Assembly (NCBI GenBank): GCA_013202715.1
Contig: JABMRF010000040.1
Span: 4,376-68,375, forward strand
From: Candidatus Kuenenbacteria bacterium
Lineage (GTDB): Bacteria > Patescibacteriota > Patescibacteriia > UBA11705 > JABHMO01
Direction of reading: 5' to 3'
Length of the DNA: 64,000 bases
Shown here one piece after another: positions 2,095-56,079 of the stretch. The notes under the pieces were generated by a model. The model saw only the letters and a program-made list of their open reading frames with translations, was not told the DNA's origin and ran no database searches. Every line of letters starts with the position of its first letter. Within the stretch, counting starts at the first letter, position 1. The translations under genes and the position numbers were made by a program.

Positions 2095-3810
2095 CTACAG
2101 CAGTTCGAATTCAGAAGCTTCGGTTTCCACCTGAATGATCCTGAACTCGACCTTCATGTTGCTGAGCCACTCCTGCTCGCTCTTCGGAGCGCAGGGATGC
2201 GCACCGCACATGCCGCCGGCCGACTTCTCAAAGCCGTGGCCAACCACAGTGAACTGCGACTTGTCGAGCGTAATCCCCTTGGATGCTGCGTAGGCAACAA
2301 TGCTGTTGCGTACCGCATTTCCACGAGTCACACTCAGGTTTCTTGCGCCCTGCCGAATCTGCTTCAGCTTGGATGCCGGAGCACCGGCCTTCTTGGCCTT
2401 CAGGTAACCGAGCGGATCCGAGTGGCCTTCGACCACCATCACCGCGCCACCGAACGTTGACATCACATCGATTGCTTTGTCATATTCGGAAGCATACATG
2501 TTTGCCGTGAAATCGTTCTTGTTCGACTTGAAGAAAATCTTCAGCGTCGGAAAAATCTGCCCTGAAGACAGAGTTCCCTGACGCTGCTTTTGCGTTACGA
2601 CCGCAGCCAGCTTTTTCTCGTCATACTTCGGAGACTCGGCATGGTACTGCAGCTTTCCGCCGGAACGCATCACGGCATAGTCCCACTCAGCGTGCATCAG
2701 CGGGTAGGTCTTGTTCATCAGACCGAGCTCGGTAAACGCGGTCTGGATTTCGGCATTGACGTTCTGAAAGCTCCTCGCCTCGCTGGACTTGGTGAAAAAG
2801 GTTTCACTGTAAGCCAGCATGGCCGGGGTGCAGTCGAAGTACATGCCCTCAGAGTCGGCGAACGCCGCCGGATCCTCGATGATGTACTTGGCAAAAAATT
2901 TCACCGTTGCATTGTAAGTTTTCTTGTCCTTGTCCTTTCCATCGAAAACCTTGGCCATTGCTTCCTGCGCCTGAATGACGCCCTTGGCAAGCTCGAACAT
3001 CGCTGCCTTGTGAGCATTGAAATAATCGGACCGTACGACAAAGACATCGAAGATGACCTTGTCACCCGACTTGGTAGTCATCAGGATACGCGCACCCTTG
3101 CGAGTGCATTCCTGCATTTTGCACACCGTATCGGTGCCACCACCGGCCGCGCGAAGCGCGTCGGGGATGATCATGAAGGCCACATCGATCGACTTGTCCT
3201 TCTCGAATGCATCTGCCGGCGAATTTGTTCCGTACAGGTTGTCCTGCCAGACAAGAGTAACATCCTTGAATGAGAGGCCGACCGTTTTCAGAACTCGCCA
3301 CAGGAAATACAGGTGCGGACCATAGGCCTGAATGGCAATCCTCTTGCCATTCAGGTCTGCCGCGGTTTTGATACCTTCACGTACGACAATTGCGTCACCG
3401 CCCGTCGAACGGGTCAGGAGACCGGCAATCACCGGCTGAGTTCGCGGATCCTTGGCCATGATCGGCAGAGCCGCATTGACCATTCCGAGAGTTCCACGGA
3501 AGGTCGGGTTCTTGCCGGACATGTAGTCGTTCAGCATCTGCTGCGGATTGTTCTGCAGCTTGATGTTGAAACACAGGCCCAGCTTGTCGAAAATCGACCC
3601 CTTTGCGGTTCGCAGAGCATTGCCGTTACCGAAGGTAAAGGCATACTCCCCGCCCCAGGAAATCACGTGCAGGTCAATGCAACTGTTGTCAGTCACATTG
3701 CCCACCGGCGAATCCTTGAACGGCTTGAGCATCTGAGCGTTGGCAACGCCAGACCACATGAAACAAACTGCGAAAACGACTACGAGAATCTTGGCGGTGA
3801 AAGTCCTCAT
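2095..3810 (-). CDS. secreted NMT1/SsuA-like substrate-binding domain fused to C-terminal OmpA-like peptidoglycan-binding domain
   Basis: signal peptide ...GVANAQ; GGDAIVVREGI motif shared with the CDS at 1-1213; C-terminal VVEGHSDPLGYL...NLSVTRGNAVRNSIVAY resembles OmpA/MotB C-domain; AGGAGG RBS. Confidence 0.65.
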   Translation of the reverse strand: MRTFTAKILVVVFAVCFMWSGVANAQMLKPFKDSPVGNVTDNSCIDLHVISWGGEYAFTFGNGNALRTAKGSIFDKLGLCFNIKLQNNPQQMLNDYMSGKNPTFRGTLGMVNAALPIMAKDPRTQPVIAGLLTRSTGGDAIVVREGIKTAADLNGKRIAIQAYGPHLYFLWRVLKTVGLSFKDVTLVWQDNLYGTNSPADAFEKDKSIDVAFMIIPDALRAAGGGTDTVCKMQECTRKGARILMTTKSGDKVIFDVFVVRSDYFNAHKAAMFELAKGVIQAQEAMAKVFDGKDKDKKTYNATVKFFAKYIIEDPAAFADSEGMYFDCTPAMLAYSETFFTKSSEARSFQNVNAEIQTAFTELGLMNKTYPLMHAEWDYAVMRSGGKLQYHAESPKYDEKKLAAVVTQKQRQGTLSSGQIFPTLKIFFKSNKNDFTANMYASEYDKAIDVMSTFGGAVMVVEGHSDPLGYLKAKKAGAPASKLKQIRQGARNLSVTRGNAVRNSIVAYAASKGITLDKSQFTVVGHGFEKSAGGMCGAHPCAPKSEQEWLSNMKVEFRIIQVETEASEFELL

Positions 3811-4081: not shown

Positions 4082-4117
4082 AAAAAAGAACATTGAGTTC
4101 AATGTTCTTTTTTTTGA
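4082..4117. terminator. bidirectional rho-independent terminator
   Basis: A-run, 11-bp stem aagaacattga/tcaatgttctt, T8 run. Confidence 0.7.
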
Positions 4118-4119
4118 AA

Positions 4120-5532
4120 TTACCGTTGGAACGGCCGGCAAACCTTTGCTTTCGCGCCATAGAAACTCAATCTAAACCTCTGGACAACCTTTCTTCCAGT
4201 TCCGCCAAAGGCGTCAGGCATATTCCCAAGATCGACCTTCTCTCCCATCCTGTCTGCTACCATATTTTCCTGTAACCAAAGTTTGTATTGTTCTGCTCTG
4301 CTCAACTTGTCACTTTCAAACCTTTCAAATACTCCATTAATCACACCTTGGATTGCTCCACTGATACGATCATCCAGAGCAGTCATCGTTTGGCCAATCT
4401 TGCCGGGAACACGTCCCAGCATAACCATCACAATCATGATTCCCAGAACTGCCAGAAGAGGAGAAAGGACCCACAGTAAAGCGCTGAGCATCCACCAAAG
4501 CTCTCCAGCCAAGACCAGCTTGAACAGATAGTACGCACCTACCAAAAATACGACGACACTCAAAACTTCGATTGGTGCAACACGGAGATATTTATCAGCC
4601 TCACCTTCTTTTTTACCTCGTTTCCAAAGCAAAAATTCAGGAGTACTGTCCAAGCAAACACTCCACTCTTTTTCATCTCGCTCATGCATAAAACCAAGAT
4701 ACATTTCTCTGAGCACAGGTCGCGGTCGAAAACCGCAAAACGCTGTTGCAATACTGGCCAGCAAGACATAGAGCGAGTGGAATGTGCCACCAATCAAATA
4801 GACAATGATCAAGTACCCCAGCCCCACAAACGGCTTCAGGGAATAAGCGAGCATCTTCCTCTGGCGATACACGCACTCATCGCGCGGATTTCCTGGATGC
4901 AACCAGTTTGCCCAGTCCCAAAGACGACTGGCAAACTTCGTCTTTGGCCTCTGGGCAAAAAGCTCCGTTGGCACTTCAAATTCCATCACCTTGCATGCCA
5001 GTGCGCGACCATCAAAATCGGACAAATCGCCTTCCTCAAGATTTGAAAATGAAATAGAATTTGAGCTACGTGAAAAATGATCATCACGCAGGAGATTCTC
5101 CATAAAACGTTTCGAACATCTCTTTCCATCCAGCGCAACAACTGCCAACCGGTGGTAGCCGGGTGAAAATACCTGCATGAAATGAACGACTTGCTTCAGG
5201 TCATAGAGGCTTCGCCGACCCATTGTCATTGAATGATAAACATTTTCTGTTTCGTCCTTCGTTTGTTCAATGACCAAAATATGAGTCGGAGTGTTGTCCT
5301 CATCCATCAGCCACTGCTCATCAAACCCAACCTTGATAGGAACGGTGGCGCTGTCCATCTCATTGGTACCGCCATTGAGCACAACTTTCATAGCTGAAAG
5401 CGCCACCTCACGCCGCAACTCTTCTTCCTGCCTTTCACGTTCTTCCTGCGCTTCACGTTCTTCCTGCGCTTCACGCTCCACACGCTCATTTTCCAATTGC
5501 TCAGCTGATTTCTTGGTTTTTTTCTTTGACAT
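4120..5532 (-). CDS. hypothetical protein: acidic repeat-containing N-terminal domain plus C-terminal multi-TM region
   Basis: long ORF; GGAGGAG RBS before second ATG (MSKKKTKK); 18-nt tandem DNA repeat encoding REAQEE x3; several hydrophobic helices; GC higher than genome. Confidence 0.55.
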   Translation of the reverse strand: MSKKKTKKSAEQLENERVEREAQEEREAQEERERQEEELRREVALSAMKVVLNGGTNEMDSATVPIKVGFDEQWLMDEDNTPTHILVIEQTKDETENVYHSMTMGRRSLYDLKQVVHFMQVFSPGYHRLAVVALDGKRCSKRFMENLLRDDHFSRSSNSISFSNLEEGDLSDFDGRALACKVMEFEVPTELFAQRPKTKFASRLWDWANWLHPGNPRDECVYRQRKMLAYSLKPFVGLGYLIIVYLIGGTFHSLYVLLASIATAFCGFRPRPVLREMYLGFMHERDEKEWSVCLDSTPEFLLWKRGKKEGEADKYLRVAPIEVLSVVVFLVGAYYLFKLVLAGELWWMLSALLWVLSPLLAVLGIMIVMVMLGRVPGKIGQTMTALDDRISGAIQGVINGVFERFESDKLSRAEQYKLWLQENMVADRMGEKVDLGNMPDAFGGTGRKVVQRFRLSFYGAKAKVCRPFQR

Positions 5533-8218: not shown

Positions 8219-8287
8219 AACGACGCCTCCACGAACAAGACCTCGACGCCATGTGACTCGAGAGTCAACAACACTAAACCCCAAGCC

Positions 8288-8869: not shown

Positions 8870-9160
8870 TTACAATTCAGCAATCAATTCATTGACCCTG
8901 CCGAGCGAATCGTAAAACTTAATGTACCTGGAAATTTCTAGCGTTGATGCAGATTGCTCAATTGCATTTTTCAATGCACCTTTTTCTTCGACAGTCAGAT
9001 CGCCAATCATCTCCTTGAAAAGGTCGACGAGAAAAACCAATTTGAGCGCGTTGTCCCTGTAGTAGGTAACGCCCTTCATGGTATCATTTTCTGCCAATGC
9101 TTCACACAAATCCTGAAATTTTTCAAAAAGTGCTTTCAGTACTGGATTCAACGTTGCCAT
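8870..9160 (-). CDS. hypothetical small protein (96 aa)
   Basis: ORF with GAGGT upstream; no recognisable domain. Confidence 0.45.
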   Translation of the reverse strand: MATLNPVLKALFEKFQDLCEALAENDTMKGVTYYRDNALKLVFLVDLFKEMIGDLTVEEKGALKNAIEQSASTLEISRYIKFYDSLGRVNELIAEL

Positions 9161-9293: not shown

Positions 9294-10400
9294 TTATTCA
9301 ATTTCACCGCCCCCTAAACATTCATCTCCATTATAAAAAACACAATACTGGCCGGAGGTAATGGCTCGCTGGGGTTTTGGAAATTTCACCAGAAATTTGT
9401 TTGAAGAACGATTGTCAGGCGAACTTCCGGAAGTTCGCCTGACAATCTGACAATTTACATTTTCAGATCGATATCGGATTCGGCATTCGCATTTAAATGG
9501 CAATGTTGGAGCCGTGCCGGAAATCCAATTAACTTTTTTAACTATTAATTCTTTGGCTAAAATATCATCTTCGTTTTTACTCACCCAGAGGGTATTATTT
9601 TTTTTATCCAATCGAGAAACATACCACGGACCATCGGCAAGGCCAATCCCCTTTCTTTGCCCAATTGTGTACATTGGTAAACCGTCATGCTGGCCAAGGA
9701 TTTTACTGTCAGGCGCGACGCCTTCTCGAATAGGCCCTTTTTCAAATTTGATATATCTTTTCAAAAATTCACCCACCTTTCCATCCGCTACAAAACAAAT
9801 TTCCTGTGATTCTTTTTTGCTGGCAGTTGACAGTCCATGTTTCTTGGCCAATTTTCGAACTTGTTCTTTTGTATAATTTCCAACTGGGAACATAACATGA
9901 GCCAGATCCTTTTGCTTGATCTGATGAAGGAAATATGACTGGTCTTTGTTTTTGTCCCGTCCCACGCGTAGGGAACGGTCGCGACCGTTCCCTACGCGAG
10001 CGAAATGCCCGGTCGCGACAAAATCAACGCCCATTGGTTTTAATTTTTTCCACAACTCACCAAATTTGATATATTGATTGCAACGCACACATGGATTTGG
10101 TGTACGACCACACTCATATTCATTAACAAAATTATCTACAATTTTTTCCTTGAACGGAGCCTTCATATCAATCACATAAAACGGAATTCCGAGCTTATTG
10201 CAAACCCGGCGGGCATCTTCTGCAGATTCCAGCGAACAGCAAATGTTTTCACGAATTTTGCCCTTGATATTCTCATTCCAGAATTTCATAAAAACACCAA
10301 TGACTTCATAGCCTTGTTCTTTTAATAATACTGCGGCAACTGACGAATCCACTCCGCCGGACATGCCGACGGCCACCTTTAATTGTTTGTTTTTATTCAT
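9294..10400 (-). CDS. mnmA: tRNA-specific 2-thiouridylase MnmA
   Basis: PP-loop VGMSGGVDSS, ...NPCVRCN..., ...KDQSYFL; TATAAT 6 nt upstream of ATG and no SD. Confidence 0.9.
   Translation of the reverse strand: MNKNKQLKVAVGMSGGVDSSVAAVLLKEQGYEVIGVFMKFWNENIKGKIRENICCSLESAEDARRVCNKLGIPFYVIDMKAPFKEKIVDNFVNEYECGRTPNPCVRCNQYIKFGELWKKLKPMGVDFVATGHFARVGNGRDRSLRVGRDKNKDQSYFLHQIKQKDLAHVMFPVGNYTKEQVRKLAKKHGLSTASKKESQEICFVADGKVGEFLKRYIKFEKGPIREGVAPDSKILGQHDGLPMYTIGQRKGIGLADGPWYVSRLDKKNNTLWVSKNEDDILAKELIVKKVNWISGTAPTLPFKCECRIRYRSENVNCQIVRRTSGSSPDNRSSNKFLVKFPKPQRAITSGQYCVFYNGDECLGGGEIE
9965..9998. repeat. 34-bp perfect GC-rich palindrome inside the mnmA coding sequence
   Basis: cgcgtagggaacggtcg|cgaccgttccctacgcg; reverse complement identical. 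Confidence 0.9.
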
Positions 10401-17758: not shown

Positions 17759-18946
17759 TTATTCCTTGCTTTTTAATAACGCGACTGGTACTAATTGTAA
17801 ATTAATATCAAAACTGACCATTGTATCTAGGGCAACTGGCTCCTCCGGCTCCTCAATTCCAAGTTCAAGATCAAATTCTGACTCAAATACTTCCGGGGCA
17901 GCCTTGCTTGCTGCGTTCAAATCAACCAATTCTACAAAATCTGCTTCCTGAAAAACTGCCAACTGCCTGGCTACGTCCGTATAATTTTTTGCTTTTGCTG
18001 ACAAAACAATTTTCCCGGTATCCTCTGCGGTAATGCCGGTATAATATACATTTTCAACTGTGTTATGTTCCAGTTCAGTTAGAAATTCAGTCCAGTAAAT
18101 ATGATTTTTTAGTAAAATTTGTAAAACCTTGGCGCGTTCTTTTAGTTTTTGCACCTGCAGTTTCCCTGTGCCGTATAAATTTATTTCCGCTTGAGTCTGA
18201 CTAATCAACCCGTCTAAGTCATTGTATTCTTTGACTAAATCTTTTTTATAAAATTTGATCCCAAAGTATGCGCCTGAGAACAAAAGGACAAAAACTAAAA
18301 CAAGAATTAAAATATATTTGACGCGCAACCAAAACTGGCCAAGCACAACCTCCTGATAATCTTCTGAAATTAAATTAACTTCTGCTGGCGGTTTTTTAAA
18401 ACGTAAAACGGCCAGTCCTTTTTTGAAATAATCAGCTAATGGTTTTGATTTCCGCGCCCGCTCTACTTTGTCTGATGTTTCCTGAATGATTTTTTTGCCT
18501 GTTCCGTTTAGCTCACGTTCATCTTGTGGAAACCTCATTTTCAACCCTTTGTTTGATTTTTTTTCCGGAGGCGGTGGCGGTAGTGGCGTTTCAACCTTTG
18601 GAGGTGGTGACAGGGCCGGCATTTTAATCTTTGGAGGCGCTGGCGGAACCGGCCTTTCCCCTCGACTTCGCTCGGGATCTGCGACTACTTTGGGGGGTGG
18701 TGGGGGTGGAGTAGGCTTTTCTTTTTGCTTCAATCGAAAAATCCCACGCTTTTTCTTTGGCGCCAGTTCTTGACCTTCCAGCTTTATCCATTCTTCAGTC
18801 TCCTGCTTAACTTCCGCCTTTTGCACTTCGTCTTTTTTCTCTGGCAAATGCATTTTAAAATCAGGTAAACCCATTCCCTCCTTTGTTTTTTGTTTTTCTT
18901 CTTCCTCTTTGTCTCTTTGAGACTTGGGAAGTAAACTTATTGGCAT
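17759..18946 (-). CDS. PilN-like protein with Pro-rich N-terminal extension
   Basis: PPPPPPK/PPPPPE low-complexity stretch then TM helix and coiled-coil. Confidence 0.5.
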   Translation of the reverse strand: MPISLLPKSQRDKEEEEKQKTKEGMGLPDFKMHLPEKKDEVQKAEVKQETEEWIKLEGQELAPKKKRGIFRLKQKEKPTPPPPPPKVVADPERSRGERPVPPAPPKIKMPALSPPPKVETPLPPPPPEKKSNKGLKMRFPQDERELNGTGKKIIQETSDKVERARKSKPLADYFKKGLAVLRFKKPPAEVNLISEDYQEVVLGQFWLRVKYILILVLVFVLLFSGAYFGIKFYKKDLVKEYNDLDGLISQTQAEINLYGTGKLQVQKLKERAKVLQILLKNHIYWTEFLTELEHNTVENVYYTGITAEDTGKIVLSAKAKNYTDVARQLAVFQEADFVELVDLNAASKAAPEVFESEFDLELGIEEPEEPVALDTMVSFDINLQLVPVALLKSKE

Positions 18947-18952
18947 AAACTA

Positions 18953-18990
18953 CCGCAGATTATGCGGATCTAACGCGGATTTGGCGGACT
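18953..18990. repeat. ATCCGCG-family repeat cluster (copy a), contains GCGGATCTAACGC
   Basis: ccgcagattatgcggatctaacgcggatttggcggact. Confidence 0.8.
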
Positions 18991-19377
18991 TTACTGCAAC
19001 GTCCAGCTTTTTTCATGGACCCTGCGTACAATCTCAAGGTTCTTTGCGCCAAAATTCACAATAAATCCTAACTTATATTCTGATGTTGTTAAATATTGAT
19101 ATAATTTCTTTATAAATACTTCAGGGATAAACAATACTGATTTAAATTCAACAATAATTTTTCCGAATGGTACAAAATCTGGCTTATAATAACCTACAAC
19201 TTTTCCCTCCATCATTAAATGAAGTGTTTTTTCTCGTTCGTATAATATACTTTCCCTTTTCAATAATTCTTCAAACGCATTCCCATAAACTTTTTCTTTA
19301 TGACCTGGCCCAAGTGTATTGTAAATTTCCATCCATAAACCGCGGAGTATATATGATGATTCATCTTCATAAATCAA
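18991..19377 (-). CDS. GxxExxY-family protein (PD-(D/E)xK-like)
   Basis: ...TLGPGHKEKVYGNAFEELL... EREKTL... GYYKPDFV... LGFIVNFG pattern typical of the family; TTG start. Confidence 0.65.
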   Translation of the reverse strand: MIYEDESSYILRGLWMEIYNTLGPGHKEKVYGNAFEELLKRESILYEREKTLHLMMEGKVVGYYKPDFVPFGKIIVEFKSVLFIPEVFIKKLYQYLTTSEYKLGFIVNFGAKNLEIVRRVHEKSWTLQ

Positions 19378-19431
19378 TGGCTATCCATCTTTCGTTATTA
19401 TTCCCATATACACGTCACTTTTAATTCCGTT

Positions 19432-19492
19432 TTATCCGCCGTTCGGCCACGAGCTCACGGCCGAGTGGCGTTAGATCCGCTTTATCCGCGCC
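19432..19492. repeat. ATCCGCG-family repeat cluster (copy b), contains GCGTTAGATCCGC, inverted relative to copy a
   Basis: tttatccgccgttcgg...ggcgttagatccgctttatccgcgcc. Confidence 0.8.
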
Positions 19493-19493
19493 A

Positions 19494-20612
19494 CTATTCT
19501 ATGTCTCGCATTGCTAACCCAATGGAAGTAGCAAGACGAGGGCCTATAGACTCCAAGATTGGTTCCAAATCCTGTGGATAAATAATTCTGGCCCATGGAT
19601 TACCGATAAATGATCGTATTCCTAATTTATCTGTAAAATATTCCGATAAATTAAACAAACTTGCTGTCCCACCGGACAAGACAATTCTTTCTATTTTTTT
19701 ACCTTTATTATCAGGTTGTTCTAGATAAAAATTCTTTGTGTATTCAATTTCATCAATAATTGATTGGATTGGTCGCTCTATAATTTCCGGTAAAGTTTTT
19801 CCCTCTCCTAATGCTTCCGGATTGCTGGCCAAATCCCTTTTGAACTGTTCAGCCTGTTCAATAGAAATATTCAGAGTCTTAGAAATTTCATTGGTAATGG
19901 AAAGTCCGCCGACTCCGAGACTTCGGTTCAACAGAGGAATTGCATTTTCAACCACAGAAATATCTGTTCCCACAGCGCCAATGTCAACCAAAACCACAAC
20001 TGATTTATCTTTTCCAACCATCGATCGAGCCAAGGCAAATGATTCTGTTTCTAAACTGATTAAATCCAAACCTGCTTTCTTGAAAATTTGAATATATTTT
20101 TGCACAACTTCCTTTGCCGCTCCGGTCAACAAAACCTGTAGGTTTTTGATTTTGGCACCATCTCCTTTTGCTCCTTTGTCCTCTTTTAAAATATCTTCAT
20201 TGCCAATAACTTTCCAGTCCAAAATCATTTCTTCCAGTGGAAGCGGTAAGACTTTTTTTGCTTCCCATTCAACTGCAGCTGTCACTTTCTTTGGTGAAGC
20301 CAAATCCTTTTTGCTGATTTCAGACAAAGAAATAATTGAACTAAAAACTGCCGGCGCCGGGAGTGCGGTAATGGCTCTCTTTGTGATAACTTTTGATCGT
20401 TCCAAAACTTTCTTAATCATTTCCGCAGTTTTCTCCGGCTGATCAATCAATTTGGATCCCTCTCCAGACAAAGAACGCTCCAAATAACCATATGTTACCA
20501 ACTGCGCACGTCCATTGTTGTTAGTTAATTCAACCAACTTAATACTACTCCCACCGATGTCTACGCCAAGATAATTTGTATCTGCTGTTCCTTTTTTTGA
20601 AAATAAGCCCAT
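19494..20612 (-). CDS. pilM: type IV pilus assembly protein PilM (actin-like ATPase fold)
   Basis: YLGVDIGGSSIKLVEL..., actin/Hsp70 fold motifs; ORF-track start 20651 is TTG within a low-complexity CAAAG repeat. Confidence 0.85.
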   Translation of the reverse strand: MGLFSKKGTADTNYLGVDIGGSSIKLVELTNNNGRAQLVTYGYLERSLSGEGSKLIDQPEKTAEMIKKVLERSKVITKRAITALPAPAVFSSIISLSEISKKDLASPKKVTAAVEWEAKKVLPLPLEEMILDWKVIGNEDILKEDKGAKGDGAKIKNLQVLLTGAAKEVVQKYIQIFKKAGLDLISLETESFALARSMVGKDKSVVVLVDIGAVGTDISVVENAIPLLNRSLGVGGLSITNEISKTLNISIEQAEQFKRDLASNPEALGEGKTLPEIIERPIQSIIDEIEYTKNFYLEQPDNKGKKIERIVLSGGTASLFNLSEYFTDKLGIRSFIGNPWARIIYPQDLEPILESIGPRLATSIGLAMRDIE

Positions 20613-42412: not shown

Positions 42413-42420
42413 ATAATTTT

Positions 42421-42518
42421 CCGCGGATTTAACGGATCAAATGCGGATAATGCGGAATTTACTAACTCGTTTCCCTTTATATCCGACAAATCCACGTTAA
42501 ATCCGCAGTATCCACGTA
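42421..42518. repeat. ATCCGCG/ATCCACG-family repeat cluster (copy c), units on both strands
   Basis: ccgcggatttaacggatcaaatgcggataatgcggaattt ... atccgacaaatccacgttaaatccgcagtatccacgt. Confidence 0.8.
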
Positions 42519-54341: not shown

Positions 54342-54369
54342 AAGACAGCCTTTAATCGGCTGTTTTTTT
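54337..54369. terminator. bidirectional terminator
   Basis: gacagcc-tttaatc-ggctgt plus T7, A-run upstream. Confidence 0.7.
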
Positions 54370-54409
54370 ATCCGCGTCAATCCGCGTTAGATCCGCGTTT
54401 ATCCGCGTT
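54368..54409. repeat. ATCCGCG-family tandem repeats (copy d): four units at 10-11 bp period between convergent genes
   Basis: ttatccgcgtcaatccgcgttagatccgcgtttatccgcgtt. Confidence 0.9.
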
Positions 54410-55504
54410 CTATTCAAAATCCTCTAAAAGTTTCCTCTGCTTCCGACTAAGTTTTTTCGGCACCGCCACTTCAATAACAACATACATATCGCCTCGAGTG
54501 GAACCGTGAAGCTGCGGCATGCCTTTTCCTTTCAACCTAAACTTGGTCCCGGGCTGAGTTCCTGCTGGAATTTTCAAACTAACTTCAGATTCAAGAGTTC
54601 CCACATCAATCTCGCCACCGAGCGCAGCCTCAACAAATGAAATATTATTCTGCATGTAAATATCTTTTCCATGACGCTGAAAAACTTTATCAGATCTAAT
54701 CCGGACACGCACATAAAGATCTCCAGCTTCGCCTCCAAATGGAGCAGCATTTCCTTTTCCGGTCAGGCGAAGGGTAGAGCCATCTTCGATTCCAGCTGGA
54801 ATTTCAATATTAATTTTTTCTTTTTTCTTGGTAACTCCCTGGCCTGAACATTTGGAACACGGGGTTTCTGCTTTTTTTCCACTACCGTGACAATCTGTGC
54901 AAGTTGAACTGCTTTGAAATGCGCCGAGCATCGTTTGCTGAACTCGAGTGACACGTCCCTGACCATTGCAGGTCGAGCAAGCATTGATAGGAGTTCCAGG
55001 TTCCGCCATATTACCGTGACAATGTTCACATTTTACAGTTTTATACAATTCAACTTCTTTTTTGATTCCATTAATAACATCTTTTAATCCAATTTCAAAA
55101 TCAACCTGAATATCTTCGCCACCGCCTCGGCTTCGCCCATTTCTTCCACCGCCAAAACCAAACATGTCGCCAAATATATCGCCAAGGTCAAGTCCGCCGA
55201 AGTCAAACTTTGCTCCGTTTGCACCGCCACCTCCGCCTCTAGCTTGGCTCATAAAATCGCTCCAGTTCATCCCCCCACCAAATCCACCCATTTGGTCAAA
55301 TGAAGATCCAAACTGGTCATACTGTTTTCGTTTTTCCGGCTTGCCAAGGACCTGGTAGGCCTCATTAATTTCTTTAAACTTAGCTTCATCACCAGTTTCT
55401 TTGTCAGGATGGTACTTATGAGCCAGTTTACGAAAAGCACGCTTGATCTCGTCTTGATCAGCGCCTTTTTCTACGTTTAATATTTTATAATAATCTTTAG
55501 ACAT
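54410..55504 (-). CDS. dnaJ: chaperone DnaJ
   Basis: J-domain HPD (KYHPDK), G/F-rich region, four CxxCxGxG zinc-finger repeats. Confidence 0.9.
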   Translation of the reverse strand: MSKDYYKILNVEKGADQDEIKRAFRKLAHKYHPDKETGDEAKFKEINEAYQVLGKPEKRKQYDQFGSSFDQMGGFGGGMNWSDFMSQARGGGGGANGAKFDFGGLDLGDIFGDMFGFGGGRNGRSRGGGEDIQVDFEIGLKDVINGIKKEVELYKTVKCEHCHGNMAEPGTPINACSTCNGQGRVTRVQQTMLGAFQSSSTCTDCHGSGKKAETPCSKCSGQGVTKKKEKINIEIPAGIEDGSTLRLTGKGNAAPFGGEAGDLYVRVRIRSDKVFQRHGKDIYMQNNISFVEAALGGEIDVGTLESEVSLKIPAGTQPGTKFRLKGKGMPQLHGSTRGDMYVVIEVAVPKKLSRKQRKLLEDFE

Positions 55505-55983: not shown

Positions 55984-56079
55984 AAATGAATACTGATGAT
56001 ACTGATATACTGATTAAGAGAAATTTGATTTAGGATAACAATAAATTACGTAAAATTAGCAAAAACCGTTACCAACCTA

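Follow-up and report, generated by a model that had tools for sequence, protein, structure and literature searches.

Repeat arrays around GxxExxY genes as probable termini of a selfish insertion unit in Candidatus Kuenenbacteria and other bacteria

Background

A gene enclosed by inverted copies of a short repeat raises the question whether gene and repeats belong together as one mobile unit. We address this question in a stretch of 64,000 nucleotides from a Candidatus Kuenenbacteria bacterium (GenBank assembly GCA_013202715.1, contig JABMRF010000040.1, positions 4,376 to 68,375 of the forward strand), which is called the window throughout. In its type IV pilus cluster, a small gene of the GxxExxY (PDDEXK_3) family stands between pilM and a pilN-like gene and is bracketed by arrays of an ATCCGCG/GCGGAT repeat, here called arms. 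A first-pass annotation, made from the letters of the window alone, saw in this arrangement a possible small mobile unit whose ends resemble terminal inverted repeats, and named operators or nucleoid-protein binding arrays, with some likeness to DnaA boxes, as the alternative.

The function of PDDEXK_3 proteins was listed as unknown in a 2012 survey of the PD-(D/E)XK superfamily, and the GxxExxY/PDDEXK_3 family has undergone multiple transfers, with mixed clades between bacterial divisions and archaea (PMC3424549). No earlier description of arms around these genes was found in the searchable literature, whose coverage is incomplete, so prior work is possible.

Our analysis suggests a selfish insertion unit that is associated with the GxxExxY gene and has the arms as its termini, and we put the probability of this reading at about 0.7. 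The family is best read as a selfish element similar to repetitive extragenic palindromic (REP) sequences with their REP-associated tyrosine transposases (RAYTs), or to MITEs (miniature transposable elements with inverted repeats), with a PD-(D/E)XK nuclease as the associated protein. The window holds three copies: one full but degenerating (18953-19492, pilM/pilN), one gene-less palindrome (42419-42518) and one solo arm (54368-54409, after dnaJ).

Results

Arms and gene as one insertion unit

The full copy consists of the following parts, in which "upstream" and "downstream" refer to the strand of the gene.

18991-19377, minus strand: GxxExxY (PDDEXK_3) open reading frame (ORF), 128 amino acids from a TTG start
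18953-18990: arm 3' of the gene; plus-strand units GCAGAT at 18955, GCGGAT at 18964, GCGGAT at 18975 and GCGGAC at 18984, spacing 9, 11, 9
19421-19492: arm 5' of the gene; plus-strand units ATTCCG at 19424, ATCCGC at 19434, ATCCGC at 19475 and ATCCGC at 19484
19439-19469: GC-rich hairpin of 31 nt, core GGCCACGAGCTCACGGCC with a SacI-type palindrome, inserted within the upstream arm

The ORF is flanked by pilM (stop at 19494) and the pilN-like gene (start at 18946), and pilO with the rest of the pilus cluster follows. The downstream arm lies 1 nt from the GxxExxY stop codon and 7 nt from the pilN-like start; the upstream arm, split by the hairpin, ends 1 nt before the pilM stop codon (19494-19496). 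The two arms are inverted across the gene, 491 nt apart, and are 87% complementary over 23 nt. The hairpin is missing from the closest relative, L227, in a DNA alignment, and no second copy of it was found in the window or in any fetched locus. No ORF other than PDDEXK_3 fits between the arms.

Relatives of the window gene in other assemblies of the candidate phyla radiation (CPR) have quite different neighbours. The genes of P0002 (88% identity) and P0003 (81%) are located between a small gene and an amino-acid permease gene, that of P0004 (75%) between a MamF-like gene and pyruvate kinase, that of P0005 (65%) beside a gene of the metallo-beta-lactamase fold and that of P0010 (59%) in a pilus/secretion cluster on a 645-kb contig. 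All these loci have GCGGAT-type units upstream and ATCCGC-type units downstream, and in some relatives translation continues through the downstream arm, which then forms the C-terminus of the annotated protein (...SALDPR, NPR...). When the DNA of the window element is aligned with loci L227, L228 and L004, homology sets in with the first GCGGAT unit and stops with the last ATCYG unit, and the flanks are unrelated. Because homology among the copies is limited by the outermost units, the arms bound an insertion unit; arms and gene travel as a single block between unrelated loci, in three contexts.

For comparison with the corresponding site in other genomes, contigs were traced that encode PilM proteins 78-80% identical to the window PilM. 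Their pilM-pilN gap is shortest in L224, with 24 bp and a PilM of 78% identity; L220 has 94 bp at this place and L222/L223 174 bp, and no GxxExxY gene lies between pilM and pilN in any of these; the window spacer measures 547 bp and is composed of the element except for about 12 nt. The orthologous sites in these relatives thus lack the element. The window element has terminal inverted repeats of the kind that bound a mobile unit, and the suspicion of the first-pass annotation is borne out by the homology boundaries, the empty site and the cross-phylum generality described below. Presence/absence polymorphism and several genomic contexts are seen at pilM-pilN, in the three contexts at 75-88% identity and in a loop of LepA.

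Cross-phylum survey of GxxExxY loci

The same arrangement was surveyed at 80 GxxExxY loci of GTDB species representatives from Patescibacteria, Bacteroidota, Chloroflexota, Nitrospirota, Ignavibacteria, Gammaproteobacteria and others, 75 of which had enough flanking sequence for the test: a 5-mer present at least three times within 70 bp upstream of the gene and its reverse complement at least three times downstream. Such inverted flanking arrays occur at 31% of the 75 loci and in 0.2% of 490 shifted control geometries; with the threshold lowered to two on each side the figures are 76% and 12%. Flanking by inverted arrays is general, and the same arm-gene-arm architecture surrounds GxxExxY genes across phyla.

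The repeated 5-mer is nearly always CGAAT, ACGAA, CGGAT or GCGGA, and its polarity is fixed, with CG(A/G)AT pointing toward the gene on either side. The logo of 217 units reads (T)(W)(A)C-A-CG-R-AT-(T), and the modal unit spacing is 9 bp (108 of 148), followed by 10 bp. At least three chained exact units are present in 46 of 150 arms and in 1 of 286 control windows; at locus L155 the two arms match perfectly as inverted repeats over about 36 nt. Palindromes of this type that lack the gene are often found near the surveyed genes, with at least seven in tandem in the Prevotella contig L206.

In-frame copies inside essential genes

Three Patescibacteria genomes have the arm-GxxExxY-arm block within a long stop-free ORF of an essential gene:

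secA, 917-aa ORF: insert that separates the C-terminal zinc finger from the scaffold domain
lepA, 788-aa ORF: insert in a loop of the G-domain
recG, 840-aa ORF: insert between helicase motifs II and III

Pfam places PDDEXK_3 nested in the SecA, LepA and RecG hosts and finds no Hint/intein domain in them. JGI metagenomes, scanned for an exact arm pattern of 22 bases, gave 8 loci. In 7 of the 8 the arm is traversed by a long ORF of at least 199 codons that contains no stop, and 5 of these 7 ORFs are recognisable housekeeping genes, in which the arms are gene-less; they encode IleRS, MiaA (where two elements differ from each other), LigA, LepA and a Mur-type ligase. Translation of the arm uses one and the same frame in 6 of the 7, giving ...INAD...NPR(K/E)SALDPR(K/E)S....

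Moranbacteria LepA proteins, 60-99% identical, provide a series of states of one loop. The loop is empty in P0204 (596 aa), holds arms and gene in P0200 and at least 8 others (743-901 aa), gene-less arms in P0211 and a left-arm remnant in P0201, and other palindromic inserts elsewhere. At the DNA level, a GCAGAC-type palindrome is present in the P0211 gene and absent from the P0204 gene. A second LepA site shows polymorphism of the same kind. Essential genes of other CPR bacteria thus tolerate both full and gene-less copies in frame; in the window all copies are intergenic, and palindromes within ORFs are confined to the relatives.

Two observations touch the same hosts. A 14-aa insert, KPHPNPLLENEREK, in the G-domain loop just described (alignment columns about 88-140) distinguishes the LepA proteins P0203 and P0204, which are otherwise 99% identical; it looks like a very recent insertion or deletion. 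A CPR isoleucyl-tRNA synthetase of 1159 aa (L213, 1646-5122, minus strand) has an entire histidine-phosphatase domain (His_Phos_1, residues 494-670) nested in its catalytic domain, in addition to an in-frame arm palindrome.

Copies and arms in the window

The G+C content of the window is 40%, and almost all long ORFs are on its minus strand. It contains the hexamer ATCCGC 37 times, with 21.3 +/- 4.7 expected, a count reached in none of 100 shuffles, and the surplus is concentrated in a few intergenic clusters. The coordinates given for these clusters by the first-pass annotation all proved accurate, as did its 13-mer GCGTTAGATCCGC, which occurs exactly three times: with its reverse complement it brackets the GxxExxY gene (18964-18976, minus; 19468-19480, plus), and the third copy is at 54384-54396 (plus). 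Copies with two mismatches at 42423 and 42494 bring the total to 5, with 0.66 expected. The arms at 18964-18980 and 54380-54396 share an identical 17-mer, ATCCGCGTTAGATCCGC.

A scan of the window finds four-unit chains only at 18955-18989, 42423-42457, 42481-42515 and 54370-54406; the array split by the hairpin spans 19424-19489. The window thus holds five arms, each of about four tandem units 9-11 bp apart, with the hexamer core GCGGAT or a one-base variant, and they sit tight against neighbouring genes, 1-8 nt from their stop or start codons. Outside the pilM-pilN locus, the following features were recorded.

42419-42518: gene-less palindrome; left arm 42421-42457 (four GCGGAT-type units, spacing 9, 11, 9), spacer of 23 bp 42458-42480, right arm 42481-42516 (four ATCCRC-type units)
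54368-54409: solo arm of four tandem ATCCGCG units, spacing 10, 11, 10
54345-54363, minus strand: hairpin resembling a terminator, with a T run after it, on the dnaJ strand downstream of the solo arm; context, outside the repeat family
55993-56014: possible degenerate solo array, ACTGAT three times, spacing 8-10, located 10 nt upstream of the start of the NYN_YacP gene

Of the three further intergenic sites claimed at first pass, the palindrome and the solo arm stand; for the third only the ACTGAT array is available, which may be a degenerate solo arm or a chance occurrence, its membership in the family being uncertain. The palindrome is placed between the stop of a hypothetical gene (42572) and the start of a class II aminoacyl-tRNA synthetase gene (42412). 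Its spacer shares TTTACT with the arm-adjacent 3' end of the GxxExxY gene, which hints at a deletion derivative; the match is too short to count. The solo arm directly follows the dnaJ stop codon (54410-54412) and precedes the hairpin (54363-54345), so that its placement between dnaJ stop and terminator was correctly described. Read in the dnaJ frame beyond the TAG stop (54380-54412), it would give NADKRGSNAD, the usual arm peptide of in-frame copies. The arm looks as if it had landed at the extreme 3' end of dnaJ in the usual frame.

Unit geometry bears on the possibility that the arrays are host operators, nucleoid-protein arrays or DnaA-box clusters to which the GxxExxY gene is merely adjacent. 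The units had been described as 10-11 nt long and, at dnaJ, as set at helical periodicity. The former holds for dnaJ (10, 11, 10) and fails at the GxxExxY gene and the palindrome (9, 11, 9), and the latter is no property of the family, in which a period of 9 bp dominates. What speaks for host sites is the regularity of the spacing, with 10-11 bp at dnaJ, and the fact that some units match TTATCCACA at 7-8 of 9 positions. Against this, the likeness to DnaA boxes amounts to no enrichment, and the cross-phylum core is CG(A/G)AT, not TCCACA; genes in the window show no strand switch, and the arrays co-travel with the gene. Because the arms lie in frame in essential genes of relatives and are absent from their orthologous intergenic sites, we reject the operator or nucleoid-protein explanation and regard host sites of any kind as extremely improbable. 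A DnaA-box cluster or origin was considered separately as a candidate and discarded: matches to TTATCCACA with at most one mismatch number 22, with 18.1 expected, and only one of them lies in an array.

The position of all three window sites just past stop codons in co-directional operons is in keeping with another explanation, that the arms act in RNA. The paired inverted arrays would then form a long stem that stabilises, processes or terminates mRNA, like REP hairpins or rRNA intervening sequences cut by RNase III, and would be kept for that rather than for DNA mobility. In the predicted RNA fold of the whole GxxExxY element the arms do pair (z = -3.8), and the fold of the gene-less palindrome is better than that of its shuffles (z = -3.2). 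At dnaJ, however, the solo arm lacks a partner, and conservation concerns the unit cores, the spacers between units being often non-complementary. A cut or terminating stem would be lethal in frame in secA, lepA, recG, ileS and ligA, and the presence of the block at different loci in relatives is left unexplained. We therefore consider this explanation quite unlikely. A role of the paired arms in RNA may coexist with mobility, and it explains neither mobility, solo arms nor in-frame copies. Scans of the window gave no Rfam match at the gathering threshold, hence no intron or other RNA family, and no tRNA or tmRNA gene.

The GxxExxY gene and its protein

The family assignment of the ORF was confirmed by profile matches well above the cut-offs, with 85.2 bits for PF13366 (cut-off 22) and 89.6 bits for TIGR04256 (cut-off 35). 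The G25xxE28xxY31 motif and the catalytic triad D67, E77, K79 are kept; in an alignment of 30 homologs E28, Y31, D67, E77 and K79 are invariant, and G25 is invariant or nearly so. An AlphaFold (AF2) model with a mean confidence (pLDDT) of 92.3 has the topology ααβββββαββ (two helices, five strands, helix, two strands). Foldseek with this model returns generic PD-(D/E)XK nucleases alone, for example Cas4 SSO0001, lambda exonuclease and Hjc, and a profile search against PDB sequences has T7 endonuclease I as its best match, marginal at E = 0.029 and located around PD...ExK. The protein is thus expected, from model and profiles, to be a PD-(D/E)XK nuclease. As the only ORF in the element, it leaves no place there for a recognised transposase of the DDE, HUH/Y1, serine recombinase or tyrosine recombinase type, and none was found.

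Homologs start with MxIITK(D/S)GxPLLYE, and public gene calls start at Met16. In the window copy the ancestral start is the ATG at 19405-19407. An in-frame TAG at 19381-19383 breaks the leader (MGIITKDG*PLIYEDE), so the conserved MGIITKDG(K/Q)PL is cut, the ORF is not intact at full length, and a TTG or an internal ATG is left as the start. In the relative with 75% identity (P0004, L004 about 470-500), a TAG replaces a conserved Trp. The window copy is probably decaying, and the nonsense changes in the two copies look like independent decay of the gene with persisting arms.

Discussion

A proposed mechanism and its weighing

An arm of this family consists of 3-5 short tandem units with the core CG(A/G)AT, set 9-11 bp from one to the next, and two arms are inverted with respect to each other. 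Full copies have the GxxExxY nuclease gene between the arms, and empty copies comprise two arms or one. In the proposed mechanism, the nuclease would bind the repeated CG(A/G)AT units, with several protomers per arm, and make DNA breaks that enable spread. Spread could take two routes: the gene might be copied into gene-less palindromes, with the arms serving as homology (homing), or the whole arm-gene-arm block might move. Gene-less copies would be non-autonomous derivatives or targets, comparable to REP doublets (REPINs) for RAYTs and to MITEs for insertion sequences. That the nuclease itself drives mobility is a tentative proposal, to which we give somewhat less than even odds. With similar reserve we suggest that GxxExxY proteins could be the dedicated nucleases of an unrecognised pan-bacterial class of mobile elements with CG(A/G)AT-array ends and an open reading through both arms, which would let them live in frame within essential genes.

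Several points weigh against the selfish-unit reading or its parts. We infer binding and cutting of the arms by the nuclease, and another enzyme could instead move the arms with the gene as passenger. Exact arrays of at least 3+3 units are present at only about a third of the surveyed loci, and no arms were seen at some homologs on viral contigs. The shifted controls of the survey were mostly coding sequence, whereas flanks of genes are often intergenic; the recurrence of one core motif across phyla is, despite this bias, not a general property of intergenic DNA. The window copy may be inactive because its ancestral N-terminus is lost. Our view of the source genome spans 64 kb, and none of the 8 metagenome loci comes from the source organism. 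A target-site duplication is not definable, since filled and empty LepA DNA are too diverged and TAT/AATTAT is ambiguous.

The passenger idea has to be weighed in its own right. The arms would be a palindrome that is independently mobile, or generated, and moved by the host or by another enzyme; the GxxExxY gene would be carried along, or would be a homing gene aimed at palindrome centres, with no part in spreading the arms. Palindromes dispersed without a dedicated transposase have a precedent in the CGTC-type REPs (PMC3733652). Solo arms and palindromes without a gene are common, also as tandem runs, for which L206 is an example. In L206 and in L153 the gene has a left arm on one side and a complete palindrome on the other, as though it had been dropped into an array. 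Protein similarity does not covary with the A or G of the core either (51.3% identity for the same core and 50.9% for different cores, p = 0.35). Nevertheless, the core CG(A/G)AT is common to arms from Patescibacteria to Bacteroidota and Chloroflexota, which is hard to explain unless the gene product reads it. Other cargo between arm pairs in the fetched loci is limited to a second GxxExxY gene and to false pairs inside coding regions, and two diverged paralogs on one Bacteroidales contig differ in their arms, which are of GCAGAT type for one and of ACGAAT type for the other. On balance we find a passenger gene unlikely, more credible than a purely RNA-level function, and prefer the selfish unit associated with its GxxExxY gene.

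Comparison with known mobile elements

In its logic the element is closest to the REP/RAYT system, and also close to the Rickettsia palindromic elements (RPEs). With REPs, REPINs and RAYTs it shares dispersed short palindromes and an associated gene flanked by inverted repeat copies, as well as gene-less inverted doublets and singlets located mostly just downstream of genes, clusters, and some copies inside coding genes (PMC3733652). The associated protein, however, is here a PD-(D/E)XK nuclease of about 125 aa, whereas a RAYT is a HUH/Y1 tyrosine transposase of IS200/IS605 type. An arm is here composed of 3-5 short CG(A/G)AT units, in contrast to the REP with its single hairpin of 20-40 bp and a GTAG or CGTC tag (PMC3733652), and whole gene-bearing copies stand in frame inside essential genes. 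Having neither a Y1 gene nor a GTAG/CGTC-tagged palindrome, the element does not belong to REP/RAYT; its flanking geometry is analogous.

RPEs, of about 80-150 bp, are found in frame in unrelated housekeeping genes and are translated as extra peptides, with no transposase known (PMC10969869). Palindromes inserted in frame in host ORFs are common to both. RPEs lack an associated gene and are confined to Rickettsia, whereas the present family has a gene-bearing form and occurs in many phyla, and its window copies are all intergenic.

Insertion sequences and MITEs likewise have inverted termini, exist in autonomous and non-autonomous forms, show presence/absence polymorphism and turn up in multiple contexts. 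They differ from the present element, which lacks a recombinase of the DDE, HUH, serine or tyrosine class and a demonstrable target-site duplication, whose termini are made of tandem sub-repeats and whose "autonomous" unit measures only about 0.5 kb.

Homing endonuclease genes, whether free-standing or borne by inteins or introns, also present small nuclease genes that form optional inserts in conserved genes, with gain, decay (compare the in-frame stops here and in L004) and loss. Homing endonucleases of the PD-(D/E)XK type exist (I-Ssp6803I). Neither an intron nor a Hint splicing domain is found here, and the insert is apparently retained in the host protein; there are many insertion sites instead of one cognate site, and arms made of repeat arrays are not a known feature of such genes. 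In living in frame inside essential genes, the element is comparable to an intein that lacks splicing.

T7 endonuclease I and other junction-resolving nucleases are small PD-(D/E)XK proteins as well, and T7 endonuclease I is the weak best PDB match; cruciforms, on which such enzymes act, could form by extrusion of the palindromic arms. The similarity is marginal, though, and fold search gives only generic PD-(D/E)XK matches. What sets the element apart from REP/RAYT and RPEs is its minimal PD-(D/E)XK nuclease, its arms of tandem units with a cross-phylum core and its gene-bearing copies in frame.

Significance

The fixed tie to arrays of one short cross-phylum motif provides a concrete candidate DNA partner for the large GxxExxY family of unknown function, and the association with arms gives a rationale for the behaviour of this family as selfish DNA. 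If the nuclease drives mobility, the element would be a type of mobile element built on a stand-alone, minimal PD-(D/E)XK enzyme. If the element class is pan-bacterial, it would explain the high copy number and patchy distribution of GxxExxY genes and a share of the unexplained insertions in CPR proteins.

Copies in frame in secA, lepA, recG, ileS and ligA show an element reshaping essential proteins of CPR bacteria, and they matter for annotation, for alignments of phylogenetic markers and for odd insertions in CPR proteins. The concern about annotation is a real one because the source record of the 783-aa LepA with insert, P0200, names this fusion "GxxExxY protein"; nested copies of the element lead to mis-annotation of essential genes.

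Other repeat arrays

Arrays of related appearance were met elsewhere. In viral contigs, the generic pattern GCGGAT N3-5, three times, finds mostly coding tandem repeats of Gly/Tyr type among the matches listed, and such a three-unit pattern is not specific. In the viral contig L060 (62% G+C), tandem arrays of ACGCGGAT type lie just upstream of the ribosome-binding sites of three genes (2936-2960, 8242-8266 and 9020-9044). In L096 (about 9465-9545) a T run is enclosed by ATCCGTG and ACGCGGAT in inverted orientation, and the phage-like contig L126 has an array of ACGCGGAT type (about 2630-2700, minus strand). No GxxExxY gene was seen beside these non-coding arrays of L060, L096 and L126.

In L222/L223, the pilM-pilN spacer (4105-4278) is filled by an unrelated palindromic family of AAATTCAAA type. 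This family is also found in frame in the LepA loop described above (P0209, P0273, P0293 and P0298, with peptides such as KIQNSK and ISNDQISK). CPR genomes seem to host several families of in-frame palindromic elements. In the contig L216 (5410-5515 and 1008-1072), one CPR miaA gene has two in-frame palindromic elements, of GCGGAT and GCAGAC types, and an intergenic array of 7 units of GTCCG type is also present. Because L216 holds the GCGGAT, GCAGAC and GTCCG types, several arm subtypes coexist in one genome.

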